Assembly (NCBI GenBank): GCA_030747395.1
Contig: JASLKT010000001.1
Coordinates: 4,661 to 68,660, forward strand
From: Candidatus Thalassarchaeaceae archaeon
GTDB lineage: Archaea > Thermoplasmatota > Poseidoniia > Poseidoniales > Thalassarchaeaceae
Reading direction: 5' to 3'
DNA length: 64,000 bases
This document shows, one piece after another, positions 16,181-63,720 of the stretch. The notes beneath the pieces were generated by a model. The model was not told the DNA's origin. It did not search any database and saw only the letters and a list, made by a program, of their open reading frames with translations. Position 1 is the stretch's first letter. Every line of letters starts with the position of its first letter. Both the position numbers and the translations under genes were made by a program.

Positions 16181-16235
16181 GGGCGTCCTCAGAAGTCATC
16201 GAGGCAGAATCCGACTTCAAGAACTTGCCCCATAC

Positions 16236-16253
16236 CGGCCCCTAAGGGGGCCG
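16236..16253. other. GC hairpin CGGCCCC-TAAG-GGGGCCG
   Basis: Perfect 7-bp GC stem. Lies in the divergent region upstream of the Roadblock operon. Near-identical hairpin type at 29604..29621. Confidence 0.3.
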
Positions 16254-16373
16254 TTTGATGAGTGAAATTGATTCGCCAACTGGAAAATGGCGATATTGAT
16301 GCAATTTTGCCACGTTTGGAGTGGATATTGTTTTGAAAAAAAGGCGAAAAGAATACAATGATGGAGATTATAG

Positions 16374-16409
16374 ATTTCAATTGAAAGTTTCATTTTCCAA
16401 TTGGGAAAT
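16374..16409. promoter_or_regulatory. tandem CAATTG-palindrome element (ATTTCAATTGAAAG + TTTTCCAATTGGGAAA, centres 20 bp apart)
   Basis: Read from sequence. Sits immediately upstream of a TATA-like TTTGAATAAA (16431-16440), ~25 bp before the GTG start at 16460. Confidence 0.5.
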
Positions 16410-45203: not shown

Positions 45204-45236
45204 TTTTCCAATTGGAAAAATGAATTTTCAATTGAA
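45204..45236. repeat. tandem CAATTG-palindrome element: TTTTCCAATTGGAAAA (perfect 16-bp palindrome) + TTTTCAATTGAA, centres 20 bp apart
   Basis: Read from sequence. Fills the 33-bp gap between convergent M28 peptidase and BCCP genes. Confidence 0.6.
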
Positions 45237-47264: not shown

Positions 47265-48122
47265 TCACTCCTCTTTCCAATTGGGTGGGCGCTTTTCAAG
47301 GAATGAGGCCAAGCCTTCCTGCCCCTCATCTGAGCCTCTCATCTCACTGGTTTTGTCAAGTGTCCATTGCCTCAATTCTTCATCAGTTCCATCCCAGCGA
47401 TCAAAAGTTAATACCAGTTTTTTAGATTCTGAAACGGCCATTGGTCCTGTCGTCAAGACCTCGTTAATGATTGTCGATTCTGCATCCTCTAGTGATTCTG
47501 ATAATTGATTCACCAACCCAATTCGAAGTGATTCTTCGGCGCCAATTCTTCCAGCCATCATAGACAGTCGTCGGAATTCTGCGCTACCCACCTTTCGATA
47601 TACGTAAGGGCCAATGACAGCAGGTAAGATTCCTAATTTCCCTTCAGAAAGGGCGATTCGTGCTCCCGGCTCAACGATGACGTGGTCCAGACAAGCGATG
47701 AGGCCAGCTCCACCTCCTAGGGCAACACCTTGGATTTTTCCAATGGTAAAACAAGGATGTGACCAGAGACTGTTGAACAAGCGATCAAGCCTTTCAGAAT
47801 CGGCTCTGTTTTCTTCTGGACTTTTGGCTCCTGCATCCCTCATCATATTGATGTCGGCCCCTGCACAGAAGTGCTTGCCTGCTCCAGAAAACACGATTAC
47901 ACGCAGAAAGGGTGAACCGGATGAATCGTGCAAAGATCCTCGTTCACCGACCGAACGGTCTCGAGTCCAATCAAGAATTGAGATAATCTCGCTGATGAGT
48001 TGGATATTCAGCGCATTATACACATCTTCACGTGTCAGGGTCACATGGGCGACCGCTCCGTCTATTTCAAGCGCACAAAGGCTTGTTTCTGGCTTTAAAT
48101 TTTCAATTGCAAAATTAGACAT
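47265..48122 (-). CDS. enoyl-CoA hydratase/isomerase family (methylglutaconyl-CoA hydratase-like)
   Basis: Crotonase fold, VIVFSGAGKHFCAGADI oxyanion-hole segment. 285 aa. Confidence 0.8.
   Translation of the reverse strand: MSNFAIENLKPETSLCALEIDGAVAHVTLTREDVYNALNIQLISEIISILDWTRDRSVGERGSLHDSSGSPFLRVIVFSGAGKHFCAGADINMMRDAGAKSPEENRADSERLDRLFNSLWSHPCFTIGKIQGVALGGGAGLIACLDHVIVEPGARIALSEGKLGILPAVIGPYVYRKVGSAEFRRLSMMAGRIGAEESLRIGLVNQLSESLEDAESTIINEVLTTGPMAVSESKKLVLTFDRWDGTDEELRQWTLDKTSEMRGSDEGQEGLASFLEKRPPNWKEE
47274..47305. repeat. CAATTG-palindrome element (CTTTCCAATTGGGTGG + degenerate TTTTCAAGGAA 20 bp away) at the hydratase/BC junction
   Basis: Read from sequence. First half-site is strong, second is degenerate. 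Overlaps the last codons of the hydratase gene. Confidence 0.4.
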
Positions 48123-48134
48123 TTCAATTGCTCC
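48101..48134. repeat. tandem CAATTG-palindrome element (TTTTCAATTGCAAAAT + ATTTCAATTGC, centres 21 bp apart) spanning hydratase start codon and carboxyltransferase stop
   Basis: Read from sequence. The hydratase N-terminus MSNFAIENLK is encoded by one copy. Confidence 0.5.
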
Positions 48135-51935: not shown

Positions 51936-54152
51936 TCATTCTTCCTCTTCTTTCTGGATTGAAGGAGTCATGACCCAATTCAATGCGGTACCAATCAGAA
52001 TCAATGACCATCCTGTCCAAACCAAATGGCTACCCGTCAAATCATAGATAATAACTCGAACTCTATCTACTGAATCGCCCTGTTGCATCGTCACTGATAT
52101 CCACGAGAGATCCTGCGCCTGACTCTGATCAAAAATCATCACAATATCTCCATGCGGACGGTGCCAAATATCCGTTTCAGAACGGGCATTGATACTACCT
52201 TCGTCGAATCTCAGCATCCCTGGTGTCAACGTTGCAATGACATCACCCTCAACTTCCTTTCGTACTTCGACTGTGACGGTTATTTTCCCATCGCCGACGT
52301 TCTCATCCCATCCTTCATCATCGGGACCAATGGCCGTCAATTCGGTAAACGTGTACCAATACTCCCCATGCTCAATGGGAGTATCCTTTGCGAGCATCAC
52401 AATGTGGCTCGGATCTCCACGCTGAACCAGTGTTGTGGTAAACACGTGTCCAACCAACAAGAGAAGGATGCCAAGGTGGGCAACATGAATGGCCATTCGA
52501 CGCAATTGCAATGGTTTTCGACGCAATCGAAATTCACCATATCGAGTCCATACCAATCGAATCATGGGGGGAATTGAAAACAAGAACAAGGGCAAAGCAA
52601 AACCTGCAATCATGCCCCTTGTGATTCCTTCTGCACCACGGAATTCAAGATCTGCATCACCAGGCAATGCATCACCCATCGCATAAGCGAACAAAATGCT
52701 GAGAAGAATCATACTACCCACCAATCTCGGAATTAAATGTGGTTTGACGACCTTACGCCAACTGTAAATTGTAAGTCCAAGTGCTGAAAGGCAAATCAAC
52801 GGTAAACCAAAAATCTCGTGCCATTCCAAATTGGTGCCGTCTACTTCTGCAAGCAACAACAACCAGGTGAGCAAGAGGAAAGGTGCACCAACAGCCAGTG
52901 GGGTCCACAAGACAAGTCGTTGTTGCCAGCGTCCGTCATTCCAATCCAATGGAGGGTCATCTTGATCTCCTAGTAAGAACATGGGGGACAAAAAGCCAAC
53001 CATTCCAATGACGGTTGGAATTACCGATAATAGTGAAGCCCAATAGCTGAAAAGCATCAATGTCACACCCGCTGTCATCCACACAACGCGCTCATTAGTT
53101 GCATATTGGTTTGATAGTAAGAAGGCAAAAACACCCGTCAGAATCCCAACCTCTACCGTGCCCATCCACGACCCGATTAGGCCACCTGCGATGATTACCA
53201 GAGGAGTCCACTCTTGTTCTTCAGAATTTGCGAAGTGACGTATACCCAACCACATCAAACAGAATAGAATGACCAAGTAGAGATGGACCTCAAGCCCTGC
53301 TCCGTCTTGAATACCCAACTCAAGGATGCGTTGAATGGGCCCCATTGAAGGATCTATTTCACCTTCAGCGACGAAAGCATGTACACTGTCCCAAACACCA
53401 TTTGCACGTGTGACCAGTGTGGCATGGATGGCGAAGAATGCGGGTAAAATCCCTAACCCAACAAACCAATGATCTTCATTGGACATACCCTTGGGTAATC
53501 TGAGATGAAGTAGAATAATCAGGGCAATCCATGGCAAAAGAGAGCCCGTCTCTACCGGATCCCATGCCCAATAGCCACCCCAATCCAAAATCGTGTAAGC
53601 CCACAATCCGCCTAGGCCTACACCCAGTGTGCCGACCCATAATGCTGGACGAGCGAGGTGGAGGATTCTGTCTCGCGCGGGCGCGCCCGCATGGAGCATT
53701 GACGAAATAGAGTGCACACCAACACCCACGCACAGTGTGTAAAAGGCGAAAATCACGGGTGGATGAATAACCATCAAATCAGTTTGCAACCAAGCGTTGA
53801 GGCCTGGGCGAGAAATCACATCGCTAGGGGTCGCACGAAATGGTTCCAACATCAGGGCGATAAGGAGGAGAATGGTTGAGAAACCTACTAACAATCGAAG
53901 GCGAAGTTGGTGCTGAGGAACTGTTTCTGTGGGATGTTTCTCACCATCTATTAGAATGAGAGCACCCAACATGGCCACCCACAGGAGTAAGGGACCAGAT
54001 CTCCCTGCCCAAATCGCACTAATTCTGTAGAGAAGTGGTAGATCAGAGCCACCATTACTCCACACATATTCGATGCTAGAGGCATCGATTAGAAACAAAA
54101 ATAGCAGTATGGAGAACGGCAGCATCAATGCGATACCGAGCAGTTTTCTCAT
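51936..54152 (-). CDS. ccmF: cytochrome c-type biogenesis protein CcmF (heme lyase/heme-handling family)
   Basis: WWD tryptophan-rich signature WGGYWAWDPVETGSLLPW, about 15 TM helices. Start trimmed to MRKLLGIALM (ATG 54150-54152), 5 nt after the upstream gene stop. Confidence 0.8.
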   Translation of the reverse strand: MRKLLGIALMLPFSILLFLFLIDASSIEYVWSNGGSDLPLLYRISAIWAGRSGPLLLWVAMLGALILIDGEKHPTETVPQHQLRLRLLVGFSTILLLIALMLEPFRATPSDVISRPGLNAWLQTDLMVIHPPVIFAFYTLCVGVGVHSISSMLHAGAPARDRILHLARPALWVGTLGVGLGGLWAYTILDWGGYWAWDPVETGSLLPWIALIILLHLRLPKGMSNEDHWFVGLGILPAFFAIHATLVTRANGVWDSVHAFVAEGEIDPSMGPIQRILELGIQDGAGLEVHLYLVILFCLMWLGIRHFANSEEQEWTPLVIIAGGLIGSWMGTVEVGILTGVFAFLLSNQYATNERVVWMTAGVTLMLFSYWASLLSVIPTVIGMVGFLSPMFLLGDQDDPPLDWNDGRWQQRLVLWTPLAVGAPFLLLTWLLLLAEVDGTNLEWHEIFGLPLICLSALGLTIYSWRKVVKPHLIPRLVGSMILLSILFAYAMGDALPGDADLEFRGAEGITRGMIAGFALPLFLFSIPPMIRLVWTRYGEFRLRRKPLQLRRMAIHVAHLGILLLLVGHVFTTTLVQRGDPSHIVMLAKDTPIEHGEYWYTFTELTAIGPDDEGWDENVGDGKITVTVEVRKEVEGDVIATLTPGMLRFDEGSINARSETDIWHRPHGDIVMIFDQSQAQDLSWISVTMQQGDSVDRVRVIIYDLTGSHLVWTGWSLILIGTALNWVMTPSIQKEEEE

Positions 54153-54156
54153 CGGT

Positions 54157-55383
54157 TCACCATCCGTAGTACTTCGCACGGCTGTAGCCAAATGCGAGCA
54201 TTGCAGGAACAATTCGACGGAAATACAGGCTGGGTTTTCGAACAAGCAAACGCAACCCAACCATTGCTTTTCCATGTGGCCCCATTGCCGACATCTCTTG
54301 TGGGAAACAGCGTCCCATCAAGGACATCTCGTCATCATTGAGATTGTATAGTGCTGTTTTACCCTTGAGAATCTTATCGTATGGTGGGAATTCCCTCTTC
54401 CAAGCCGCCTGATAAGCAGCTAGGCTTGAGGCTGAAAAATCGCCGGAGTGGATTGAAGATGCTGCGGTTATTGCCGCGAATACTGCGGATTTCAAAGCGA
54501 GATGAGACCCGCCTTCAAACAGAGGTGAGGTGAAGCCGGCAGCATCACCAACAAGCATCAAACCGTCTGCATAAGTTCGTTCATGTGGACCTGAAATTGG
54601 AATCGTACCCCCAAATCCTCTAACGGATACTGAACCGTCCCGCCAAGGGGGATTTGTAATTTCAAGATCAGAGAAATGTGTGGTTTCGATAAACGCATCC
54701 AAGTCTTTCACGAGACCCTTCTTATCCTCACTCACAAGACCAACATTCGCGCGGCCATCACATTTTGGAATCATCCAAAGGTAGCCTTTCTTGGCATATT
54801 TTGGCCATATGTAGAAATCGAGATACCCATCGGTAGGCACATCATGCATTTCGTATTGAATTCCTGCAATTACTTTGGGTCGTTCGTTCAGTTTGGTGAG
54901 TTTTGAACAGACACCTGCAACTCCCGATGCGTCGATGATTATTTTCGCAGTGATGGGGAAAGAATCACCCTTCCCTTCACATTGCCAACCACAAAATTTC
55001 CCATTGGATTCAATGCGATTCATTCCTGTCAATTTGTGACTCAAATTGAGAGTCGCTCCCGCTGCAACTGCTTCATCTGCAATCCATTGCTCAAACAGGT
55101 GCTTTTCAAGGACGTAACCAGGCTCAGAAAGATGCTTCTCAGTCCCATCGGGGAATATGACTCGAATCCCATCAACATGCTTGCTAATCACCGTCTCAGG
55201 GAGGTCCAATCCGAGGTTGGCAACAGCGACGTTAGACAAACATTCACCACAATGAACAGGAGTACCGATTTCAGCGTGGTCTTCGATAAGGATAACCGAT
55301 AATCCTGCTCGAGCAGCATGCAACGCTGCGGAACCTCCGCCAGGTCCAGCCCCGACGACGAGAACATCACACTCGGATGCCAT
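54157..55383 (-). CDS. geranylgeranyl reductase family flavoprotein (digeranylgeranylglycerophospholipid reductase-like)
   Basis: FAD-binding CDVLVVGAGPGGGSAAL, GD-box LMLVGDAAGF. Start trimmed to MASECDVL. Confidence 0.8.
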   Translation of the reverse strand: MASECDVLVVGAGPGGGSAALHAARAGLSVILIEDHAEIGTPVHCGECLSNVAVANLGLDLPETVISKHVDGIRVIFPDGTEKHLSEPGYVLEKHLFEQWIADEAVAAGATLNLSHKLTGMNRIESNGKFCGWQCEGKGDSFPITAKIIIDASGVAGVCSKLTKLNERPKVIAGIQYEMHDVPTDGYLDFYIWPKYAKKGYLWMIPKCDGRANVGLVSEDKKGLVKDLDAFIETTHFSDLEITNPPWRDGSVSVRGFGGTIPISGPHERTYADGLMLVGDAAGFTSPLFEGGSHLALKSAVFAAITAASSIHSGDFSASSLAAYQAAWKREFPPYDKILKGKTALYNLNDDEMSLMGRCFPQEMSAMGPHGKAMVGLRLLVRKPSLYFRRIVPAMLAFGYSRAKYYGW

Positions 55384-55481
55384 TAGAGGGGGATACAGTC
55401 GATACGGGCCTTGAATGCCTCGGTGCCGTAGGCACCGGCGCACGCCCGCTGGATTTGATAGGGGGAACGTTTCCGGCGACC

Positions 55482-57323
55482 ATGGGATGGCGCCGCCTAG
55501 GACGTTACCTCCGCTCGCTGGAGGACAAAGGAGATCTCATCCGAATCACACGCCCTGTTGATTGCTATCTAGAAGCAGGATGTATTGCTGATAAACTCGT
55601 CAAGAACGGTGGACCTGCTGTCATTTTTGAACAACCAAAACTCGCCGATGGAACCATCTCAAAATTCCCTCTAGCCATGAATTTGTATGGAACTCGACGC
55701 CGGACAAATCAAGCATTACGGGTTGAAAAACCAAGTGAAATAGGGGGGAGATTGACCGATCTCATGAAACCCGATATCGGGACCTTTGCCAAGCGCCCAT
55801 GGAAGGCTTGGCCCCTTGCCAAGAAGGCGCTTTCTCTCCCTCCGAAAAAGGTTCGAAAGGGGGCTTGCCAACAGGTGAGAATGTCCAAACCAGATCTAAC
55901 CAAACTACCCATTCCCACAACATGGCCTATGGATGGAGGACCATTCATCACCTTGCCATTGGTCGTCACAAAAGATCCATCCACGAAAGAACACAATTTG
56001 GGAATGTATCGCGCCCAAGTCTATGGCCCAACCGAAGTAGGATTGCATTGGCAAATGCACAAACATGGTGCCGATCATGCTGCTGCAAGCGATGGGAAAA
56101 TGCCTGTTGCAATTTGCTTGGGAGGTCCACCTGAAGTTATGTTCAGTGCAATTGCCCCCTTGCCAGATAATCTTGAAGAGTACATGTTTGCTGGATTATT
56201 GGGACAAAAACGACTCAGAATCACCAAATGTCTAACACAAGATTTGTGGGTTCCCGCAGAAGTAGATGTTGTCATTGAAGGATATACAATACCAGGGGAA
56301 ACGCAAACAGAAGGGCCTTTTGGAGACCACTTTGGGCATTATTCACTTGAGGGAGAATTCCCAGTTCTCCACGTGACTGCAATTACGCATCGGAAAGATG
56401 CAGTGATACCCATGACCATTGTTGGGAAACCACCGATGGAAGATGGATATCTTGGTGAAGCAATAGGTGATGCCTTCCTTCCTGTACTTCGATTCCAACA
56501 TCGTGATGTGCAGAATATGTTCTTGCCATTGGAAACTGGTTTCCACAATCTCGCAATCGTCTCATCTAAGCAACGATATCCGGCTCAAGCACGGAAAACC
56601 GCACTTGGGTTGTGGGGTGCCGGACAAATGATGTTCCTCAAAACCATCGTTGCAACAGGACCCGAACATGATGTCAAAAATCTGGATGCGTTGCTAGATG
56701 TCTTGGATCAAAATGTTTCGATTCCGGATGACTTGGTCGTTCTCGATGGTATGGTCGCTGATCAATTGGCCCATGCTGCACCCTACGAAGGCGTGCACTC
56801 CAAGCTTCTCATCGATGCATCAACACCAAGAAAACAGGGGCATCCAAACATTTCCCTTGATGGAATTGAAGGAATTTCTCAACATCGCTGGATTCGACCA
56901 TCGATGCTGGTCATTACAACTCAAATCGAAGGTGGGCCCTCTGAAACAGAGAATACGGAACTCATAGATGAAGAAGGTGCGAACAGGCAAAGGGGACAAA
57001 TATCCCAATTGATGAATTCAATTTGGCAATTGGAAAATTCAAATAAATTACGCTGGTTATTCATCACAGACGACAGTCTTAACTTGGACTCAGAAGATAC
57101 GATGCGTGTCTTACTGTGGCAACTATTCTGTCGTTTTGAAGTGAGTCGTGATTTACACTACTCGGCTGAAGGAAACAGAATTTGTTGGGATGCCACCGCA
57201 CCGATTCCTTCGACCGAAGGAAAAATGCCCGTACGAAGATGGCCGGCAGTTTGTATCCATGATTCTAGCATTCAAACAAAGGTTGACGAGTGGTATGAGG
57301 AGGAGGTGCGAACATGGGCCTGA
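55482..57323 (+). CDS. ubiD: UbiD-family (prenylated-FMN-dependent) decarboxylase with ~110-aa C-terminal extension
   Basis: N-terminal LRSLEDKGDLIRI...GGPAVIFE, conserved UbiD core. ATG 55482 chosen (family-typical N-terminus, avoids overlap with the divergent reductase). Confidence 0.8.
   Translation: MGWRRLGRYLRSLEDKGDLIRITRPVDCYLEAGCIADKLVKNGGPAVIFEQPKLADGTISKFPLAMNLYGTRRRTNQALRVEKPSEIGGRLTDLMKPDIGTFAKRPWKAWPLAKKALSLPPKKVRKGACQQVRMSKPDLTKLPIPTTWPMDGGPFITLPLVVTKDPSTKEHNLGMYRAQVYGPTEVGLHWQMHKHGADHAAASDGKMPVAICLGGPPEVMFSAIAPLPDNLEEYMFAGLLGQKRLRITKCLTQDLWVPAEVDVVIEGYTIPGETQTEGPFGDHFGHYSLEGEFPVLHVTAITHRKDAVIPMTIVGKPPMEDGYLGEAIGDAFLPVLRFQHRDVQNMFLPLETGFHNLAIVSSKQRYPAQARKTALGLWGAGQMMFLKTIVATGPEHDVKNLDALLDVLDQNVSIPDDLVVLDGMVADQLAHAAPYEGVHSKLLIDASTPRKQGHPNISLDGIEGISQHRWIRPSMLVITTQIEGGPSETENTELIDEEGANRQRGQISQLMNSIWQLENSNKLRWLFITDDSLNLDSEDTMRVLLWQLFCRFEVSRDLHYSAEGNRICWDATAPIPSTEGKMPVRRWPAVCIHDSSIQTKVDEWYEEEVRTWA
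57003..57037. repeat. tandem CAATTG-palindrome element inside the ubiD C-terminal extension (CCCAATTGATG + TTTGGCAATTGGAAAAT, centres 21 bp apart)
   Basis: Read from sequence. Encodes ...QLMNSIWQLENSNKL. Confidence 0.5.
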
Positions 57324-58165
57324 AAGCGATTCTCGAATTTGTAAAAATTGAGCATACGATGTTTTCCCTTCCGTTCGTCTTCATTGGCGCATATATTGCT
57401 GGAGAACCGACCATTATCCAACTGATTTGGATATTGATTGCGGCGGTTGGTGCCCGGGGATTGGCTATGGCTCTGAATCGAATTATTGATCGTGATGTTG
57501 ATTCGAAGAATCCACGAACATCTAGTCGGCACTTGGTCAGCGGGTCAATGTCCCTGAATACTGCGTGGTCATTATGTGCATTATTCTTAGGAATACTTCT
57601 CATCGGTGCTTGGCAATTGAACATGGTGGCTCTCGCAATGAGTTGGCTCCCAGTACTTGCTTTCGTCATTTACCCCTACACAAAGAGAATCACCTGGGCA
57701 TGTCACCTGTGGTTGGGATTGTGTTTGGGTCTCGCCCCAGCAGGAGCTTGGCTCGGAATTGTTGGAGGGGATTTGGGTTGGTCAGCAATTACTGAATTGC
57801 ACTGGTATCCCACGGTTTTCTGGATTAGCCTCGGAGTCATGTTTTGGATTGCTGCATTCGATCTCAATTATGCCTTGATGGATATTGAAAGTGATCGTCA
57901 AAATGGAATCCAATCATTCCCAGCACGATTCGGTGAACAACACACTCTGCGCACAAGTGTACAATTCACTCTCTTGTGGTTTGCATGTTTTGCGATTGCA
58001 AACCCTATCGATAAAGTCACATTTCTCGGTGCAGCACTATGTATGTGTCTCATCAACATGGGTGTAATCATTGGACAAACAAGGATGGCTGATTTCCAGA
58101 AGGCTTTCTTTTACACCAGCGTTTTCACTGGATGGGTGTTGCTTGGAGGACTGATGGCTGCATGA
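57314..58165 (+). CDS. ubiA: UbiA-family aromatic prenyltransferase (4-hydroxybenzoate polyprenyltransferase-like)
   Basis: Asp-rich motifs NRIIDRDVD and a second DxxxD region, about 8 TM helices. 283 aa. 10-nt overlap with ubiD, 4-nt ATGA overlap with uvrB. Confidence 0.8.
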   Translation: MGLKAILEFVKIEHTMFSLPFVFIGAYIAGEPTIIQLIWILIAAVGARGLAMALNRIIDRDVDSKNPRTSSRHLVSGSMSLNTAWSLCALFLGILLIGAWQLNMVALAMSWLPVLAFVIYPYTKRITWACHLWLGLCLGLAPAGAWLGIVGGDLGWSAITELHWYPTVFWISLGVMFWIAAFDLNYALMDIESDRQNGIQSFPARFGEQHTLRTSVQFTLLWFACFAIANPIDKVTFLGAALCMCLINMGVIIGQTRMADFQKAFFYTSVFTGWVLLGGLMAA

Positions 58166-60468
58166 ATGACGATGTAGATCCATTTGACCTCTCAAAGGCA
58201 CTTGAAGGCGCGGCAAAAGCGCACCTTGATCCATCAATCTCGAAGTTTCAACTCCATTCGGAATATGGGATGGCTGGGGACCAAGAATCTGCAATTGAAA
58301 AAACTCTTTCTCAATTGAAAGATTCACAGTCTCGGTGCGTGATGCTTGGGGTTACAGGTTCGGGCAAAACATTCGCCATGGCCAATATCATTCAAGAATT
58401 GAATATCCCGACACTGATTTTATCTCATAACAAGACTTTGTCACGCCAACTTTGGCAGGAAATGTCGGGGTTATTTCCTGAAAATGCGGTTGAATATTTC
58501 GTATCGCACTATGACTACTACCAACCTGAAGCCTACCTACCCAAAAGAGACCTGTACATCGAGAAGGAGCTTTCACTGAATGAACGGATTGAACAAGAAA
58601 GGTTCTCCACTGTTGCCTCATTGGTCTCCCGACCAGATGTACTCGTCGTGGCAACCGTATCTGCAATTTATGGCCTCAACCCACCCGAGACGTTTTTGCA
58701 ACAACATGCCCGACTCCACGTTGGCCAACAAGTGGAACCACAGGAGGTTGTCAAGGAATTAGTTGCACTACAGTATCGACGTGTCACTGGAGAAATATCC
58801 AGGGGTGAATTGCGTTTGAGGGGCGAGGTTCTAGACATATGGATGCCGAGTCGCGATGATCCAATTCGCCTCCGCTTCGATTTAGATGGCATTACACGAA
58901 TTCAAGTCTGCGAGGCTGTATCATGGGAAGCAATCGATGAAATTGAAGAGGTTTGGATTCATCCAAAGGAATTTTTCATGACTGGTCCCGATCGATTTGA
59001 GAAAGCCCTGGAAGACATTGAATTCGAACTACAACAGAGATTAGACTTCTTTGAGAAAGCCGGCATGGATTTGGAGGCACATCGCTTAGAGTCTAAGACT
59101 CGTTATGACCTCGACATGCTTCGTGAAATCGGACACTGTCGTAGTGTCGAGAATTACTCTATGCACTTTGATGGGCGGAACTTTGGTGAACGGCCATATT
59201 GTTTACTCGACTTCTTTTCTGCATGCGCGCAAACATTCCATGGTTCAAAGGAAAAATTCCTAGTCATCATGGATGAGAGTCATGTTACATTACCACAATT
59301 AGGTGGAATGTATCACGGGGACCGCTCAAGAAAAGAGAATTTGATTGAGCATGGGTTTAGATTGCCCTCCGCTGCAGATAACCGACCATTGATGGCTGAC
59401 GAATTCCAATCCTTAGTGCCTCAAATTCTCTATGTGAGTGCAACTCCTGGTGAACGTGAATTGCGGCAACTTTGTGAATCGACAGGCCAGCCCGTGCAAG
59501 AAGTCGATCCAAAGGCAAAACGAAAACCACTACTGAAGGATGCGCTCGGAGAAATTCAAGGGATTTCAAGAATGGAAATCCGCCCCACGGGATTACTCGA
59601 TCCAGCCATTGAAGTTCGCCCGACTGAAGGACAAATTCAGAATTTGCTAGATGAAATTACAACATGTGCACGGAAAAATGAGAGGGTGTTGGTCACTGTG
59701 ATGACAATTAAATTTGCAGAAGAAGTGGCTGATTACTTGCAACGAATGGGTGTAAAAGCTCACTACCTGCATTCTGAAATTGATACATTGGAACGAAGTG
59801 AAATCATCAAAGCATTACGTATTGGTCACATCGATGTGATCGTTGGAATCAATCTCTTACGTGAAGGGTTAGACCTCCCAGAGGTGAGTTTGGTGGCAAT
59901 TTTTGATGCGGATAAAGAAGGATTTCTTCGCAATGAACGAAGTTTACTGCAAACGATTGGGAGGGCCTCTCGGAATCAGAATGGCAGAGTGATTCTTTAT
60001 GCCGATACAATGGGTAGGGCAATGGAATCTGCAATATCTCAGACTATTGAACGAAGGCAAAGGCAAATTGCACACAATGAGGAGAATGGAATCACTCCAA
60101 CAACTATCGAGAAACCCTTGCCTGTGATGGGAATTGAGGCTGAACAACTACTCGCAGGAACCGCCGGTAAAGGCGTAACTGGAGGGAAGCGATTCGTTGG
60201 AGGGTTTACCGGTCAAACCGGCAAGGACAAAGAAAGTGATCTGATTCAGAAATTCAACCTTGGTGCCGGTTCTTGGGGTGACGACATCGTCTCCAATCTA
60301 TCACAACCTTCTGATGCGGATGTGTCTACAGGGCATAGCGATTCAAGTAAACTATTGATTGAGCGATTGAGGAAAGAAATGAATCAATCCGCTGCTCGCC
60401 TTGACTTTGAGAAAGCAGCCGAGTTGAGAGATAGAATTTTCCAATTGGAAAACTCAAATTTCAATTGA
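58162..60468 (+). CDS. uvrB: excinuclease ABC subunit B
   Basis: GDQESAI, GVTGSGKTF Walker A, DESH box, helicase C, beta-hairpin region and a C-terminal UVR motif (LRKEM...AAELRDRI). About 100-aa Gly/Thr-rich insertion before the UVR motif. Start ATG 58162 (MNDDVDPF). Confidence 0.9.
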   Translation: MNDDVDPFDLSKALEGAAKAHLDPSISKFQLHSEYGMAGDQESAIEKTLSQLKDSQSRCVMLGVTGSGKTFAMANIIQELNIPTLILSHNKTLSRQLWQEMSGLFPENAVEYFVSHYDYYQPEAYLPKRDLYIEKELSLNERIEQERFSTVASLVSRPDVLVVATVSAIYGLNPPETFLQQHARLHVGQQVEPQEVVKELVALQYRRVTGEISRGELRLRGEVLDIWMPSRDDPIRLRFDLDGITRIQVCEAVSWEAIDEIEEVWIHPKEFFMTGPDRFEKALEDIEFELQQRLDFFEKAGMDLEAHRLESKTRYDLDMLREIGHCRSVENYSMHFDGRNFGERPYCLLDFFSACAQTFHGSKEKFLVIMDESHVTLPQLGGMYHGDRSRKENLIEHGFRLPSAADNRPLMADEFQSLVPQILYVSATPGERELRQLCESTGQPVQEVDPKAKRKPLLKDALGEIQGISRMEIRPTGLLDPAIEVRPTEGQIQNLLDEITTCARKNERVLVTVMTIKFAEEVADYLQRMGVKAHYLHSEIDTLERSEIIKALRIGHIDVIVGINLLREGLDLPEVSLVAIFDADKEGFLRNERSLLQTIGRASRNQNGRVILYADTMGRAMESAISQTIERRQRQIAHNEENGITPTTIEKPLPVMGIEAEQLLAGTAGKGVTGGKRFVGGFTGQTGKDKESDLIQKFNLGAGSWGDDIVSNLSQPSDADVSTGHSDSSKLLIERLRKEMNQSAARLDFEKAAELRDRIFQLENSNFN
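60437..60468. repeat. tandem CAATTG-palindrome element: TTTTCCAATTGGAAAA (perfect) + TTTCAATTGA, centres 20 bp apart, forming the last codons of uvrB and ending 1 nt before the deoxyhypusine synthase ATG
   Basis: Read from sequence. Encodes ...FQLENSNFN-stop. Confidence 0.6.
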
Positions 60469-60469
60469 T

Positions 60470-61498
60470 ATGTTCAACCCGCCAATTCAAGTGAGGGAGG
60501 TGGGTCGCGAAGGCGTTCCCATGACGATTAATCCCGATGATTTCGACGTTCCTGTCGTAGACTACGATTTCGATGAAATCGAGGGTGTTCCATCATTGAT
60601 TGATCAAATGGCTCAAGCAGGTGGTTTCACGGCAACGAAACTTGCTCACGCCCGAGATATTCTCAGGGATGCAATAGCAAAATCGCAGTCAGATGGTGTT
60701 CTGAATTGGCTCTCATTCCCCGCTTGCCTTTGTGCAACTGGAACTCGTGGATTTTTCGTTGAAGCAATAAAACGCAAGGCATACAATGTCATCATCACCA
60801 CTTGCGGAACACTCGACCATGACATCGCTAGGACATTTCAATCCTACTACCACGGAGCCTTCGAACTGGACGATGTTGAACTTGGAGAACAAGGTTTGAA
60901 TCGGCTAGGAAACGTGATTGTACCCAATGAATGCTATGGGGATATTCTAGAGAAATCAGTTTTACCTTGGCTTCAAGAAATTGAAGTTGAGAGGAAAAAT
61001 ATGAATCCTGAAAATCCATGGAGAGGGTTTGGAAGTATCGAATTGTGCTGGGCATTTGGTGACCGGATTAAAGATGAGAGTAGTTTGTTACACTGGGCTG
61101 CAAAACACAGAATCCCTATCGTCATCCCTGGTCTATCCGATGGATCTATTGGCGCTCAATTATTCATACACCGACAGAGAAGTCCTGATTTCATGGTTGA
61201 TTTCTTGGCTGACGAACAAGTACTATCTGATCTCACTTGGACGTGTGATGAAAGTCATGCTTTGATGGTGGGGGGCGGCATTTCAAAACACCACGTTATA
61301 TGGTGGAATCAGTATAGAGATGGGTTGGATTCTGCAGTTGGTATTACGACTGCCCCTGAACATGATGGGAGCCTCTCAGGTGCACGTTTGAAGGAAGCTA
61401 TTTCATGGGGTAAAATTCGCCCAGAAGCACCTCAGGTCACCGTGGAAGGGGACGCGAGTGTTCTTCTACCGTTACTTGGTTCAGACCTGTTCGGCTGA
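60470..61498 (+). CDS. dys: deoxyhypusine synthase
   Basis: 342 aa, conserved DHS blocks (GGFTATKLAHA..., CATGTRGFFVEAI, TTCGTLDHD, WAAKHRIPIV, GGGISKHH). Confidence 0.85.
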   Translation: MFNPPIQVREVGREGVPMTINPDDFDVPVVDYDFDEIEGVPSLIDQMAQAGGFTATKLAHARDILRDAIAKSQSDGVLNWLSFPACLCATGTRGFFVEAIKRKAYNVIITTCGTLDHDIARTFQSYYHGAFELDDVELGEQGLNRLGNVIVPNECYGDILEKSVLPWLQEIEVERKNMNPENPWRGFGSIELCWAFGDRIKDESSLLHWAAKHRIPIVIPGLSDGSIGAQLFIHRQRSPDFMVDFLADEQVLSDLTWTCDESHALMVGGGISKHHVIWWNQYRDGLDSAVGITTAPEHDGSLSGARLKEAISWGKIRPEAPQVTVEGDASVLLPLLGSDLFG

Positions 61499-63550: not shown

Positions 63551-63720
63551 TTTCCAATTGGTGAAAGAATTTAGGGCGCTCCTGCAAGTCAATTTTTATA
63601 TTGGCCGATAATGTTGTATTATCTGCCTTTTCAATTGAAAATGAACAAATGCACATCTGGGCGTATTATCAATTATTCAATTGAAAACTCTTTGATTATC
63701 CGCCTTTTTCAATTGAACAA
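63551..63720. promoter_or_regulatory. divergent intergenic region carrying four CAATTG-palindrome copies (TTTCCAATTGGTGAAAG 63551-63567; CCTTTTCAATTGAAAATG 63626-63643; TATTCAATTGAAAACT 63676-63691; TTTTTCAATTGAACAA 63705-63720)
   Basis: Read from sequence. 317-bp AT-rich gap between the aminotransferase start (63494, - strand) and the next + strand gene (63812). Confidence 0.55.

Follow-up and report, generated by a model that had tools for sequence, protein, structure and literature searches.

A paired palindromic DNA element that overlaps genes in every reading frame in Poseidoniales (Marine Group II archaea): a candidate operator array

The ubiD and uvrB copies

The window (the whole 64-kb stretch of DNA analysed here) carries on its forward strand an ORF for a UbiD-family decarboxylase (55377..57323), the uvrB gene (58162..60468), whose ATG overlaps the ubiA stop codon (ATGA), and dys, the gene for deoxyhypusine synthase (60521..61498 from its conserved start, with a Pfam DS domain). 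The first of these is a UbiD family member by its UbiD_N, UbiD (Rift-related) and UbiD_C domains; E. coli UbiD aligns only to residues 34-483 of the ORF (E = 1e-88), and the true start is probably ~35 codons inside the ORF as annotated. A shared sequence, CAATTGGAAAAYTCAAAT, occurs at 57027 in ubiD and at 60442 in uvrB. The first-pass annotation of this DNA had noted that it is read as QLENSN in both genes, and the 18-mer copies are there: CAATTGGAAAATTCAAAT at 57027-57044, on the forward strand and in the context ...IWQLENSNKL..., and CAATTGGAAAACTCAAAT at 60442-60459, reading ...IFQLENSNFN-stop. With up to three mismatches, the window holds six matches to the 18-mer (0.42 expected).

Each copy proves to be half of a larger, two-site element consisting of two abutting ~20-bp palindromes (consensus AATTTTYCAATTGRAAAATT; the symmetrised consensus of the sites is a 20-bp palindrome) with centres 20-21 bp, sometimes ~32 bp, apart. 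CAATTG by itself occurs 62 times in the window against 37.8 expected; the arrangement CAATTG-N14-15-CAATTG occurs six times against 0.04. In all, the window contains six palindrome pairs and one cluster.

The ubiD pair (57006..57032) has CAATTG at 57006 and 57027, a 21-bp spacing, with a near-copy, CAATTT, at 57017 in its centre, and reads S-QL-MNSIW-QL. It had been placed at the 3' end of the gene; it actually lies 296 nt (93 codons) before the stop codon. Nor does the proposal that an inserted element reshaped UbiD survive comparison with relatives. From residue ~537 on, the protein repeats part of UbiD_C (E = 1.3e-5; 25.6 bits, cut-off 24.2; profile positions 45-123), and this second copy is found in every Poseidoniales UbiD: an order-wide duplication and not a recent extension. 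The element overlies the conserved I-W-x-L helix of that second copy.

There are two pairs in uvrB, both with 20-bp spacing. The 5' pair (58292..58317; sites at 58292 and 58312), 130 nt into the gene, is read in different frames at its two sites (GCA ATT GAA ... CAA TTG, giving AIE...QL). In the 3' pair (60442..60467; CAATTG at 60442 and 60462) the first site codes for QL and the second provides the last Asn codon and the TGA (60466-60468). The QLE of the C-terminus had been attributed to the element, but it lies within the UVR domain: the PF02151 profile of UvrB/UvrC matches residues 742-774 of 778 (42.5 bits; gathering cut-off 21.5), with QLE at residues 770-772, and the peptide ...LDFEKAAELRDRIFQLEN is genuine UVR domain. 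Only the four-residue tail after QLEN is outside it, and here the suggestion that the element shapes the UvrB C-terminus holds. Tail residues differ among relatives (SNSN, LNIN, SKSN, EFFN and others), whereas the number of residues and the closing AAT TGA do not, the stop codon being inside the second palindrome; AATTGA at the stop is retained in 33 loci despite the variable residues. The Q of FQLE is specific to MGIIb; MGIIa proteins have FELE, and the single G-to-C difference creates CAATTG. The 3' pair of MGIIa is located ~145 nt before the uvrB stop.

The uvrB-dys junction

In the initial reading, the uvrB copy ended 1 nt before the dys start codon, leaving no room for a separate dys promoter. 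There is indeed an ATG at 60470, but it is unique to the window, relatives having ATA, ATT, AAT or TAT at that place. The conserved dys start is ATG 60521, the sequence gttcccATG being conserved there in all MGIIb relatives. That ATG lies 52 nt downstream, and room for a promoter exists: the 52-nt forward-strand spacer (60469..60520) is conserved, non-coding, and holds the TATA-like sequence ATTCAAGT. A third near-site, itself the TATA-like CAATTCAAGT (60482-60491), follows 20 bp past the second palindrome. The L033-type clade has CAATTGAAG at -31..-22 of the dys ATG and the L020-type clade has CAATTTGAAAAC at -34..-24 of the next ATG; in these two clades the copies are at TATA-box distance from a leaderless start.

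Other sites in the window and across the order

An intergenic pair (16378..16403) lies upstream of a TtuA-like gene (GTG 16460) and 27 nt upstream of a TATA-like TTTGAATA; the pair is conserved in loci L212, L213 and L215, as is its distance of 26-29 nt from the TATA-like box, a geometry fixed in four genomes. Another pair (45209..45234) occupies the 33-nt gap between the convergent stop codons of genes for an M28 peptidase and BCCP, the only convergent gap without overlap. It is retained at the BCCP end in loci L209-L211 although the convergent neighbour gene differs; the TGA of CAATTGA serves as the BCCP stop codon in L210 and L211, where the tails read ...EDSN* and ...ENSN*. The sixth pair (48104..48130) spans the start codon of the minus-strand gene for methylglutaconyl-CoA hydratase (ECH) as GGAG-CAATTG-AA-ATG...GCA ATT GAA, with the Shine-Dalgarno sequence and ATG flanking site 1; it is conserved in the same loci, where an A-to-S change preserves CAATTG. 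The cluster (63555..63715) comprises four sites (63555, 63632, 63678, 63710) between divergent genes for an aminotransferase and a PRC-barrel-like protein, and has orthologous counterparts in MGIIa as well as MGIIb loci. Of the window's seven loci, five are at gene boundaries or intergenic; measured from start codons, sites lie anywhere between -100 and +19. In MGIIa the GGR gene has sites deep within it. The genes that bear sites have no common function (quinone synthesis, uvrB, dys, leucine catabolism and tRNA thiolation).

The spacing is not peculiar to the window. Over 0.97 Mb, CAATTG pairs are 20 bp apart in 70 cases and 21 bp apart in 49, other short spacings accounting for 0-2 each, with a second, smaller peak at 32 bp; control hexamers have no comparable peak over the same DNA. 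Extended sites with high scores are nearly all clustered, and where the spacing is wide (32-78 bp) each site is individually palindromic. The spacing amounts to two or three turns of the helix, which puts the sites on one face of the DNA. Pairs are retained at orthologous positions in eighty Poseidoniales loci, with at least ten independent conserved positions for the element. Dyad symmetry, helical phasing (20, 21 and 32 bp), over-representation and orthologous conservation, the sequence marks of an operator array, are thus all present.

Selection on DNA or on peptide

Could there be no DNA element at all? UvrB QLE belongs to the UVR domain, the ubiD peptide sits on the I-W-x-L helix, and 21 bp is exactly one heptad; amphipathic QL helices of UVR and UbiD_C, combined with codon bias, might then generate the repeats. 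Codon use in ubiD speaks to this directly. The pair is conserved at synonymous sites in ~45 loci and is the gene's top window of synonymous constraint (0.92 identical codons against 0.43 expected). At the site, TTG encodes Leu in 21/23 cases (22% gene-wide), TCA encodes Ser in 21/21 (25%), ATT encodes Ile in 26/27 (49%) and CAA encodes Gln in 45/46 (72%), and in the clade that lost the motif the Q is also replaced, by R, S, A or G. The two uvrB pairs are likewise that gene's most constrained windows, the 5' pair ranking first and the 3' pair second within MGIIb. One MGIIa subclade keeps the N-terminal UvrB peptide AI..QLE with free codon choice and without the DNA motif. Furthermore, the commonest spacing, 20 bp, is out of frame, such pairs being read in two different frames, and intergenic copies exist. 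Spacing, ubiD codon use and the free-codon clade contradict the no-element reading. Its variant, a mobile repeat newly inserted at 3' ends, fares no better, the copies having orthologous positions across the order and only the palindrome in common; the whole reading is highly improbable. As a MITE- or REP-like repeat the element was also rejected on its own account: such repeats would be nearly identical, flanks included, and would differ in presence among close relatives, whereas here only a ~20-bp consensus is shared and the two families of the order have the element at the same positions.

The pairs being order-wide and, in ubiD and uvrB, under the highest synonymous constraint, and one subclade having the same peptide with free codons, sequence comparison indicates that it is the DNA and not the peptide on which selection acts. 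Distant orthologues with the same residues and divergent DNA, the pattern that would mark the peptide as the conserved entity, were considered for ubiD. Orthologues down to ~40% identity retain CAA TTG ... AAT TCA ATT TGG CAA TTR, with the adjoining Leu and Arg codons freely variable, and the earlier proposal of a DNA-level element maintained inside coding sequence is borne out. Its companion, that one and the same QLENSN peptide is at issue, is not supported: only Q-L is enforced, with E-N-S loosely so through a GAAAAYTC flank, and ENSN is conserved in ubiD orthologues neither as protein nor as DNA. The element can be read as Q-L-E-N (frame 1), [A/S/P]-I-E-N (frame 2) and N-stop or N-W (frame 3), and different genes between them use all three frames of this motif, whose TGA is the stop of at least two (uvrB, and BCCP in relatives).

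Transcription signals or RNA structures

That the palindromes are core transcription signals, either quasi-symmetric TATA/BRE-like boxes for sense and antisense initiation or bidirectional terminators with T-runs, has some points in its favour. Other promoters in the window have TATA-like motifs resembling TTTGAA/TTCAAG (TTTGAAW or TTTCAAG), which overlap the half-site TTGAAA/TTTCAA; CAATTGAAG and CAATTTGAAAAC stand at TATA distance; runs of T4-T5 flank many sites; and the pairs at the ends of uvrB and BCCP keep their place at the upstream stop codon whatever gene lies downstream (the distance to the next start varying from 25 to >100 nt), one of them filling the sole non-overlapping convergent gap. 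We nevertheless consider it unlikely. Most promoter regions in the window have no CAATTG motif, which argues for a regulon rather than a core promoter, and at TtuA the TATA-like box is distinct from the pair, which precedes it by 26-29 nt. Recognition by TBP is through the minor groove, which suits the invariant C and G of CAATTG poorly. Conserved pairs occur within ubiD and at +130 in uvrB, places where termination would be harmful, and the MGIIa 3' pair precedes the uvrB stop by well over a hundred nucleotides. Comparison with the archaeal core promoter (BRE/TATA at ~-24 to -38 from the inferred TSS, at the majority of promoters) and with the intrinsic terminator (a GC-rich hairpin and U run, or a T tract of five or more, confined to 3' ends) gave no match in either case: most upstream regions are devoid of CAATTG, and the hairpins are AU-rich with no U-tract following, T-runs being 3-5 long and inconsistent.

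All six pairs fold as site 1:site 2 hairpins of 9-10 bp (-4.7 to -11.5 kcal/mol), that of the uvrB +130 pair with z = -3.45, and several are at cistron junctions, the ECH pair next to ribosome-binding and start sequences. Action in RNA, with the stem-loop affecting mRNA processing, stability or translation at gene junctions, is nonetheless quite unlikely. A hairpin can form without each arm being one identical self-palindrome, z-scores are unremarkable for five of the six pairs, and no Rfam covariance model matches the window at its gathering threshold. The invariant core leaves no covariation by which to judge RNA pairing. Sites are also found upstream of TATA-like boxes and between divergent promoters, in DNA that is probably untranscribed, and those of widely spaced clusters keep their individual symmetry, which points to recognition of double-stranded DNA and not of RNA.

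A candidate operator array

The sequences show a motif with regular phasing that is conserved throughout the order and subject to a synonymous constraint independent of the protein; binding by a protein, and an effect of that binding, we infer. The reading that we favour, at a probability of roughly 0.55, is that the element is a cis-element of Poseidoniales serving as operator array for a putative dimeric DNA-binding regulator. Each palindrome would bind a dimer of a single sequence-specific protein (a global regulator of transcription or a nucleoid-associated protein), with paired sites bound cooperatively. Poseidoniales genomes have almost no intergenic DNA, so that many sites overlap coding sequence, and selection on the DNA would then fix synonymous positions and some amino acids. 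Reading of the element in frame 1 (QLEN) and frame 3 (N-stop) accounts for QLENS in both ubiD and uvrB and for the uvrB stop codon within the second palindrome. Where the pair precedes a TATA-like box, as at TtuA, control of initiation is plausible; at operon-internal or terminal sites (ubiD, uvrB +130, the uvrB end, the ECH start and the BCCP end) blocking or insulation of transcription is plausible.

Sites deep in genes (ubiD, uvrB +130 and MGIIa GGR) are unusual for a classical operator. They count against one, as do the functional diversity of the target genes and the finding of no transcription factor gene among the neighbours of any cluster. The copies at TATA-box distance in two clades and the ability of every pair to form a hairpin weigh on the same side.

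The stop-anchored pairs suit promoter control no better than they suit a role at 3' ends or boundaries. The paired palindromes may conceivably be boundary elements of an archaeal system not yet described, whose bound protein marks and insulates transcription units; this is unlikely. Read-through would be blocked at gene ends (uvrB, BCCP), and polarity would be set inside operons (the 3' part of ubiD, uvrB +130, the ECH start). Selection would be strong enough to have moulded stop codons and conserved protein helices to the binding site.

A further possibility is architectural or epigenetic: chromosomal landing sites (Noc/ParB-like or SMC-associated), or targets of an orphan CAATTG methyltransferase. 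CAATTG (n = 1005 in 0.97 Mb) is the commonest of the palindromic hexamers compared, several others being strongly depleted; the density is roughly one site per 9 kb, often in genes and with no functional theme; and the half-site TTTCC/GGAAA resembles the B. subtilis Noc-binding site ATTTCCCGGGAAAT. The preponderance of gene boundaries and intergenic positions in the window and the fixed geometry relative to the TtuA promoter make this distinctly improbable.

Likeness to known systems

Operation as an operator array would have parallels. The cre sites of CcpA and the boxes of CodY, which include intragenic roadblock operators, are likewise short AT-rich palindromes distributed over many unrelated operons, many of them in coding sequence or at cistron junctions, and position decides their effect. 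The arms AATTTTC/GAAAATT of the element are also the arms of the CodY box AATTTTCWGAAAATT. In contrast, the element is archaeal, where no CodY or CcpA is expected, its centre is the 6-bp CAATTG instead of 1 bp, and its sites are abutting pairs 20 bp apart. Archaeal Lrp/AsnC arrays (Ss-LrpB, FL11, Ptr2) consist of phased sets of 2-4 AT-centred palindromes of 13-15 bp, placed upstream of BRE/TATA for activation or over the TSS for repression, and several targets of the element belong to amino-acid catabolism (the leucine-degradation operon, the aminotransferase, the peptidase). The element differs from published boxes, however, and many of its sites are deep in genes. Lrp-type boxes have sequences such as TGAAAWWWTTTCA and TTGYAWWWWWTRCAA, and there is no Lrp gene beside any cluster. 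Dual-use codons (transcription-factor sites in exons, parS or Noc sites in genes) similarly suppress synonymous change and bias residues, but here one motif does so in all three frames and also supplies stop codons.

Significance

Short lineage-specific tails and odd conserved codons in Marine Group II genes can be by-products of a DNA signal, which is of consequence for annotation, and the dys start codon is corrected by this analysis. As a natural case of overlapping codes the element is a clean one. For Marine Group II archaea, an abundant and uncultured group, a search of the literature found no described cis-regulatory motif. A precise consensus, conserved positions and a protein footprint offer a handle for identifying the putative global DNA-binding factor (by DNA-affinity methods or DAP-seq), and the element may aid the reading of marine metatranscriptomes.

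A palindrome pair with fixed spacing

Two 18-mers singled out by the first-pass annotation, CAATTGGAAAATTCAAAT at 57027 in ubiD and CAATTGGAAAACTCAAAT at 60442 in uvrB, are both present and both read in frame as QLENSN. Each is part of a larger structure, in that a second CAATTG lies 20-21 bp from the 18-mer's own, at 57006 in ubiD and 60462 in uvrB. A third pair (58292/58312) is located 130 nt into uvrB, three further pairs are at 16378, 45209 and 48104, and a cluster of four sites occupies 63555-63715. CAATTG-N14-15-CAATTG occurs six times in the window against an expectation of 0.04. In the window and 80 related Poseidoniales loci (L001-L080; together 0.97 Mb), CAATTG-to-CAATTG spacings of 20 bp (n=70) and 21 bp (n=49) dominate, all others up to 31 bp occurring 0-2 times each; these counts take in orthologous copies, with at least ten positions independent. 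A secondary peak is found at 32 bp. None of ten control hexamers shows the 20/21-bp peak in these loci. High-scoring extended sites are almost confined to pair and cluster positions, and symmetrising 37 sites gives a 20-bp consensus palindrome, AATTTTYCAATTGRAAAATT; the 20-bp spacing thus corresponds to two abutting units.

Palindromic hexamer use in the same 0.97 Mb is very uneven (CTTAAG 27, GTTAAC 71, AAGCTT 102, CATATG 124, GAATTC 576, TTGCAA 633, CAATTG 1005), a skew pointing to avoidance of restriction sites in some cases and, for CAATTG, to positive selection. A CcmF-like membrane protein gene contains a 21-bp direct repeat, GACGCAATTGCAryGGTTTwCGACGCAATyG (window 52503-52535; L002:348; L009:344). 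The repeat is without the T/A-rich flanks seen at the palindromes and so probably reflects repetition at the protein level.

Selection on DNA within ubiD and uvrB

The host is a Marine Group II (MGII) archaeon (Poseidoniales, Thalassarchaeaceae-like), which groups with MGIIb, one of the two MGII families; the UvrB proteins of its nearest relatives are 88-92% identical to that of the window. Four plus-strand genes occupy 55.4-61.5 kb: a UbiD-family decarboxylase (55377-57323), a UbiA prenyltransferase (57314-58165), uvrB (58162-60468) and, downstream, the deoxyhypusine synthase gene, dys. Overlaps of start with stop link the first three, which are thus probably a single operon. Taken from its first ATG, the UbiD ORF shares 67 nt with a divergent geranylgeranyl-reductase-like ORF (55377-55443), and E. 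coli UbiD aligns only from residue 34; a true start ~35 codons further on (MGWRRL...) is probable.

Orthologues of ubiD in both MGII families keep CAA TTG nnn AAT TCA ATT TGG CAA TTR down to ~40% identity over the region, and the adjoining Leu and Arg codons vary freely. Among 27 sequences less than 90% identical to each other, the first Leu is TTG in 21/23 (gene-wide TTG use 22%), Ser is TCA in 21/21 (25%), Ile is ATT in 26/27 (49%) and Gln is CAA in 45/46 (72%). In a pairwise scan for identical codons this pair is the top stretch of the whole gene (0.92 observed versus 0.43 expected). In a clade that has lost the motif, Q is replaced by R, S, A, G, N or D with the I-W-x-L scaffold intact; the protein therefore does not require Q. 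The same scan places the N-terminal uvrB pair (AIEKTLSQL) first in the whole of uvrB and the C-terminal pair (RDRIFQL) second within MGIIb. One MGIIa subclade retains the UvrB peptide AI(D/E)..L..QLE(D/N)GQ with free choice of codons (GCA/GCT/GCC/GCG, ATC/ATT/ATA, CAA/CAG, TTG/CTT/CTC/CTA) and, like the clade that lost the ubiD motif, serves as a natural control.

Selection acts, then, on DNA rather than peptide. The proposal of a DNA-level element kept within coding sequence is borne out by the codon bias, the identical-codon peaks and the MGIIa subclade with peptide but free codons; a purely protein-level or mobile-repeat origin is contradicted by that subclade, by the ubiD codon bias and by the 20/21-bp spacing peak. 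A 20-bp spacing necessarily puts the two sites of a pair in different frames. The motif yields Q-L-(E/K/D)-N in one frame, [A/S/P]-I-E-N in the second and, in the third, N-stop, or S-N-W if the next base is G; GCA ATT GAA...CAA TTG is AIE...QL, and CCA ATT GAA AAT TCA AAA ATT CAA TTG is PIENSKIQL. Of the peptide shared by ubiD and uvrB, E-N-S is explained by the flank GAAAAYTC; what remains of ENSN varies among ubiD orthologues.

Protein C-termini

The ubiD copy had been assigned to the 3' end of the gene, within a C-terminal extension attributed to the element; it actually lies 93 codons before the stop, and the region is found in every Poseidoniales UbiD examined. The E. coli UbiD alignment covers only residues 34-483 of the window protein, and the remainder scores above the gathering threshold against Pfam UbiD_C (profile positions 45-123, E = 1.3e-5). 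From this match, residues ~537-648 (56985-57320) are identified as a partial duplicate of the UbiD_C subdomain, not made by the element, which overlies its first helix. This copy repeats the ...W...hhhhDDD...W...R...RD...DAT pattern of the first; homologues were found only among Poseidoniales-type sequences, and PDB searches with the segment, alone or as a profile, gave no match. A separate gene for this domain was considered and rejected, some of the short ORF calls being nanopore homopolymer frameshifts (L201, L202). Two independent Illumina assemblies (L204:730-790, L206:60-120) have a real CAA-to-TAA change in the first CAATTG (...KIS*LMNSIWQL..., orthologous to window 57006), so that UbiD is divided at the very site of the element; the duplicated subdomain has a 103-aa ORF beginning at an ATG two codons on. 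In MGIIa, the geranylgeranyl-reductase-like gene divergent from ubiD has its own intragenic palindrome cluster (L049:1582-1643), read as ...F-S-N-W-K... and ...F-P-I-E..., which the window orthologue (54157-55443) lacks.

In UvrB, the idea of a reshaped C-terminus does hold. QLE is within the Pfam UVR domain (residues 742-774). The MGIIb tail that follows QLEN is variable in sequence (SNSN, LNIN, SKSN, DNFN, EFFN...) and fixed in length, and its last codons are invariably AAT TGA, since the second CAATTGA supplies the TGA that serves as the stop. In 33 loci AATTGA is retained at the uvrB stop. MGIIa UvrB ends FELEQTL-stop, with the motif absent. The heptamer A AAT TTC is not conserved in relatives, and a -1 frameshift there was accordingly discarded.

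The uvrB-dys junction

Placing the dys start at ATG 60470 had seemed to leave no room for a dys promoter. That ATG is unique to the window genome (relatives have ATA, ATT, AAT or TAT), and 'gttcccATG' at the position of 60521 is common to all relatives. With 60521 as the conserved start, uvrB and dys are separated by a conserved 52-nt spacer, which provides the room: it carries a TATA-like ATTCAAGT (TTTGAAGT in L009-L012) ~30 nt before the dys ATG, resembling the TTTGAAW boxes upstream of other window genes. In annotation pipelines, the ORF-finder start at 60470 would give dys 17 spurious N-terminal residues. A GC hairpin in the spacer (ACCCGCC/GGTGGGT, 60477-60483/60500-60506) was dismissed, its consensus structure being worth just -4 kcal/mol and showing virtually no covariation.

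Location and conservation of the pairs

The pair at 60442 is anchored to the uvrB stop, its distance to the dys ATG ranging from 25 to >100 nt among clades. MGIIa loci alone have a pair at uvrB +2167, ~145 nt before the stop, and there the next gene is convergent. The intragenic sites are lost in the L033/L035/L041-type clade.

At 16378 the pair precedes a TATA-like TTTGAATA by 27 nt and the TtuA start, which looks leaderless, by ~57-82 nt. Both the pair and a 26-29-nt gap to the TATA-like box persist in L212, L213 and L215 (TtuA identity 87%, 74% and 66%) as the intervening sequence diverges; the site is absent from the L216 lineage. Nearby, just upstream of a 101-aa Roadblock-like gene, is a ~90-nt non-coding block with hairpin GGCCCCTAAGGGGGCC (window ~16195-16290; L212-L215), conserved down to 66% TtuA identity. 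It is a possible 5' leader or small RNA. Rfam matches neither this block nor anything else in the window.

Two pairs belong to a leucine-catabolism-type operon. That at 48104, inside it, straddles the methylglutaconyl-CoA hydratase start codon and is retained in L209-L211, even across an Ala-to-Ser change. That at 45209, at the operon's end between convergent stops, is retained whatever the convergent neighbour (M28 peptidase, YaaD or SerRS, by genome). In the window it takes up the 33-nt gap beyond the BCCP stop; in L210 and L211 the BCCP ORF enters it, ending ...EDSN* and ...ENSN*, an overlap with the stop codon that is independent of the one at uvrB.

The four sites at 63555-63715 separate divergent aminotransferase and PRC-barrel-like genes, and an orthologous cluster of this type is found in both MGII families (spacings 32, 46 and 78 bp). 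Upstream of the PRC-barrel-like gene the sites are joined by a second motif, which comprises the inverted repeat GGCYGATAAT...ATTATCWGCC (63603-63627), GATTATCCGCC at 63694-63704 and CAATTTTTATATTG at 63590 and is conserved in MGIIb loci (window 63590-63704; L002:11425-11545).

Five of the seven window loci are at boundaries or in intergenic DNA, and CAATTG is missing from most of the window's promoter regions. That the pairs are core promoter or terminator signals is unlikely.

A predicted protein-binding site

Every unit is dyad-symmetric, with C and G invariant, phasing is at 20-21 and 32 bp, some copies lie in probably untranscribed DNA, and only a subset of promoters carries the motif. 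All of this fits paired sites for a predicted dimeric, sequence-specific DNA-binding protein, cooperatively bound. Pairing of site 1 with site 2 as an RNA hairpin would give folds of -4.7 to -11.5 kcal/mol, with mostly unremarkable z-scores, and is an improbable explanation; a role as architectural or methylation sites is similarly improbable. The ~200-aa PRC-barrel-like gene adjoins the densest cluster and was rejected as the cognate regulator: it has weak PRC-barrel matches only and no DNA-binding domain.

If the pairs are such protein-binding sites, those upstream of promoters may modulate initiation, on the model of archaeal regulators that act according to where they sit with respect to BRE/TATA. 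Pairs inside operons and at gene ends may block or insulate elongation, as likened to the intragenic cre and CodY sites of bacteria.

Nothing relevant on the motif or on promoter motifs of Poseidoniales emerged from literature searches, the sole sequence match being a Drosophila BEN-domain site, CCAATTGG. A metagenome scan for CAATTG-N14-15-CAATTGAA returned 120 loci from unrelated organisms (soil, gut, freshwater) and uninformative on MGII, and a viral-contig scan for the strict double palindrome gave two matches only. An operator-like palindrome array over coding sequence is known in kind; the present instance appears to be new, no description of it or of any MGII regulatory motif having been found in the literature searched. 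Its distinctive twist is the use of one motif in three reading frames and as a stop codon.
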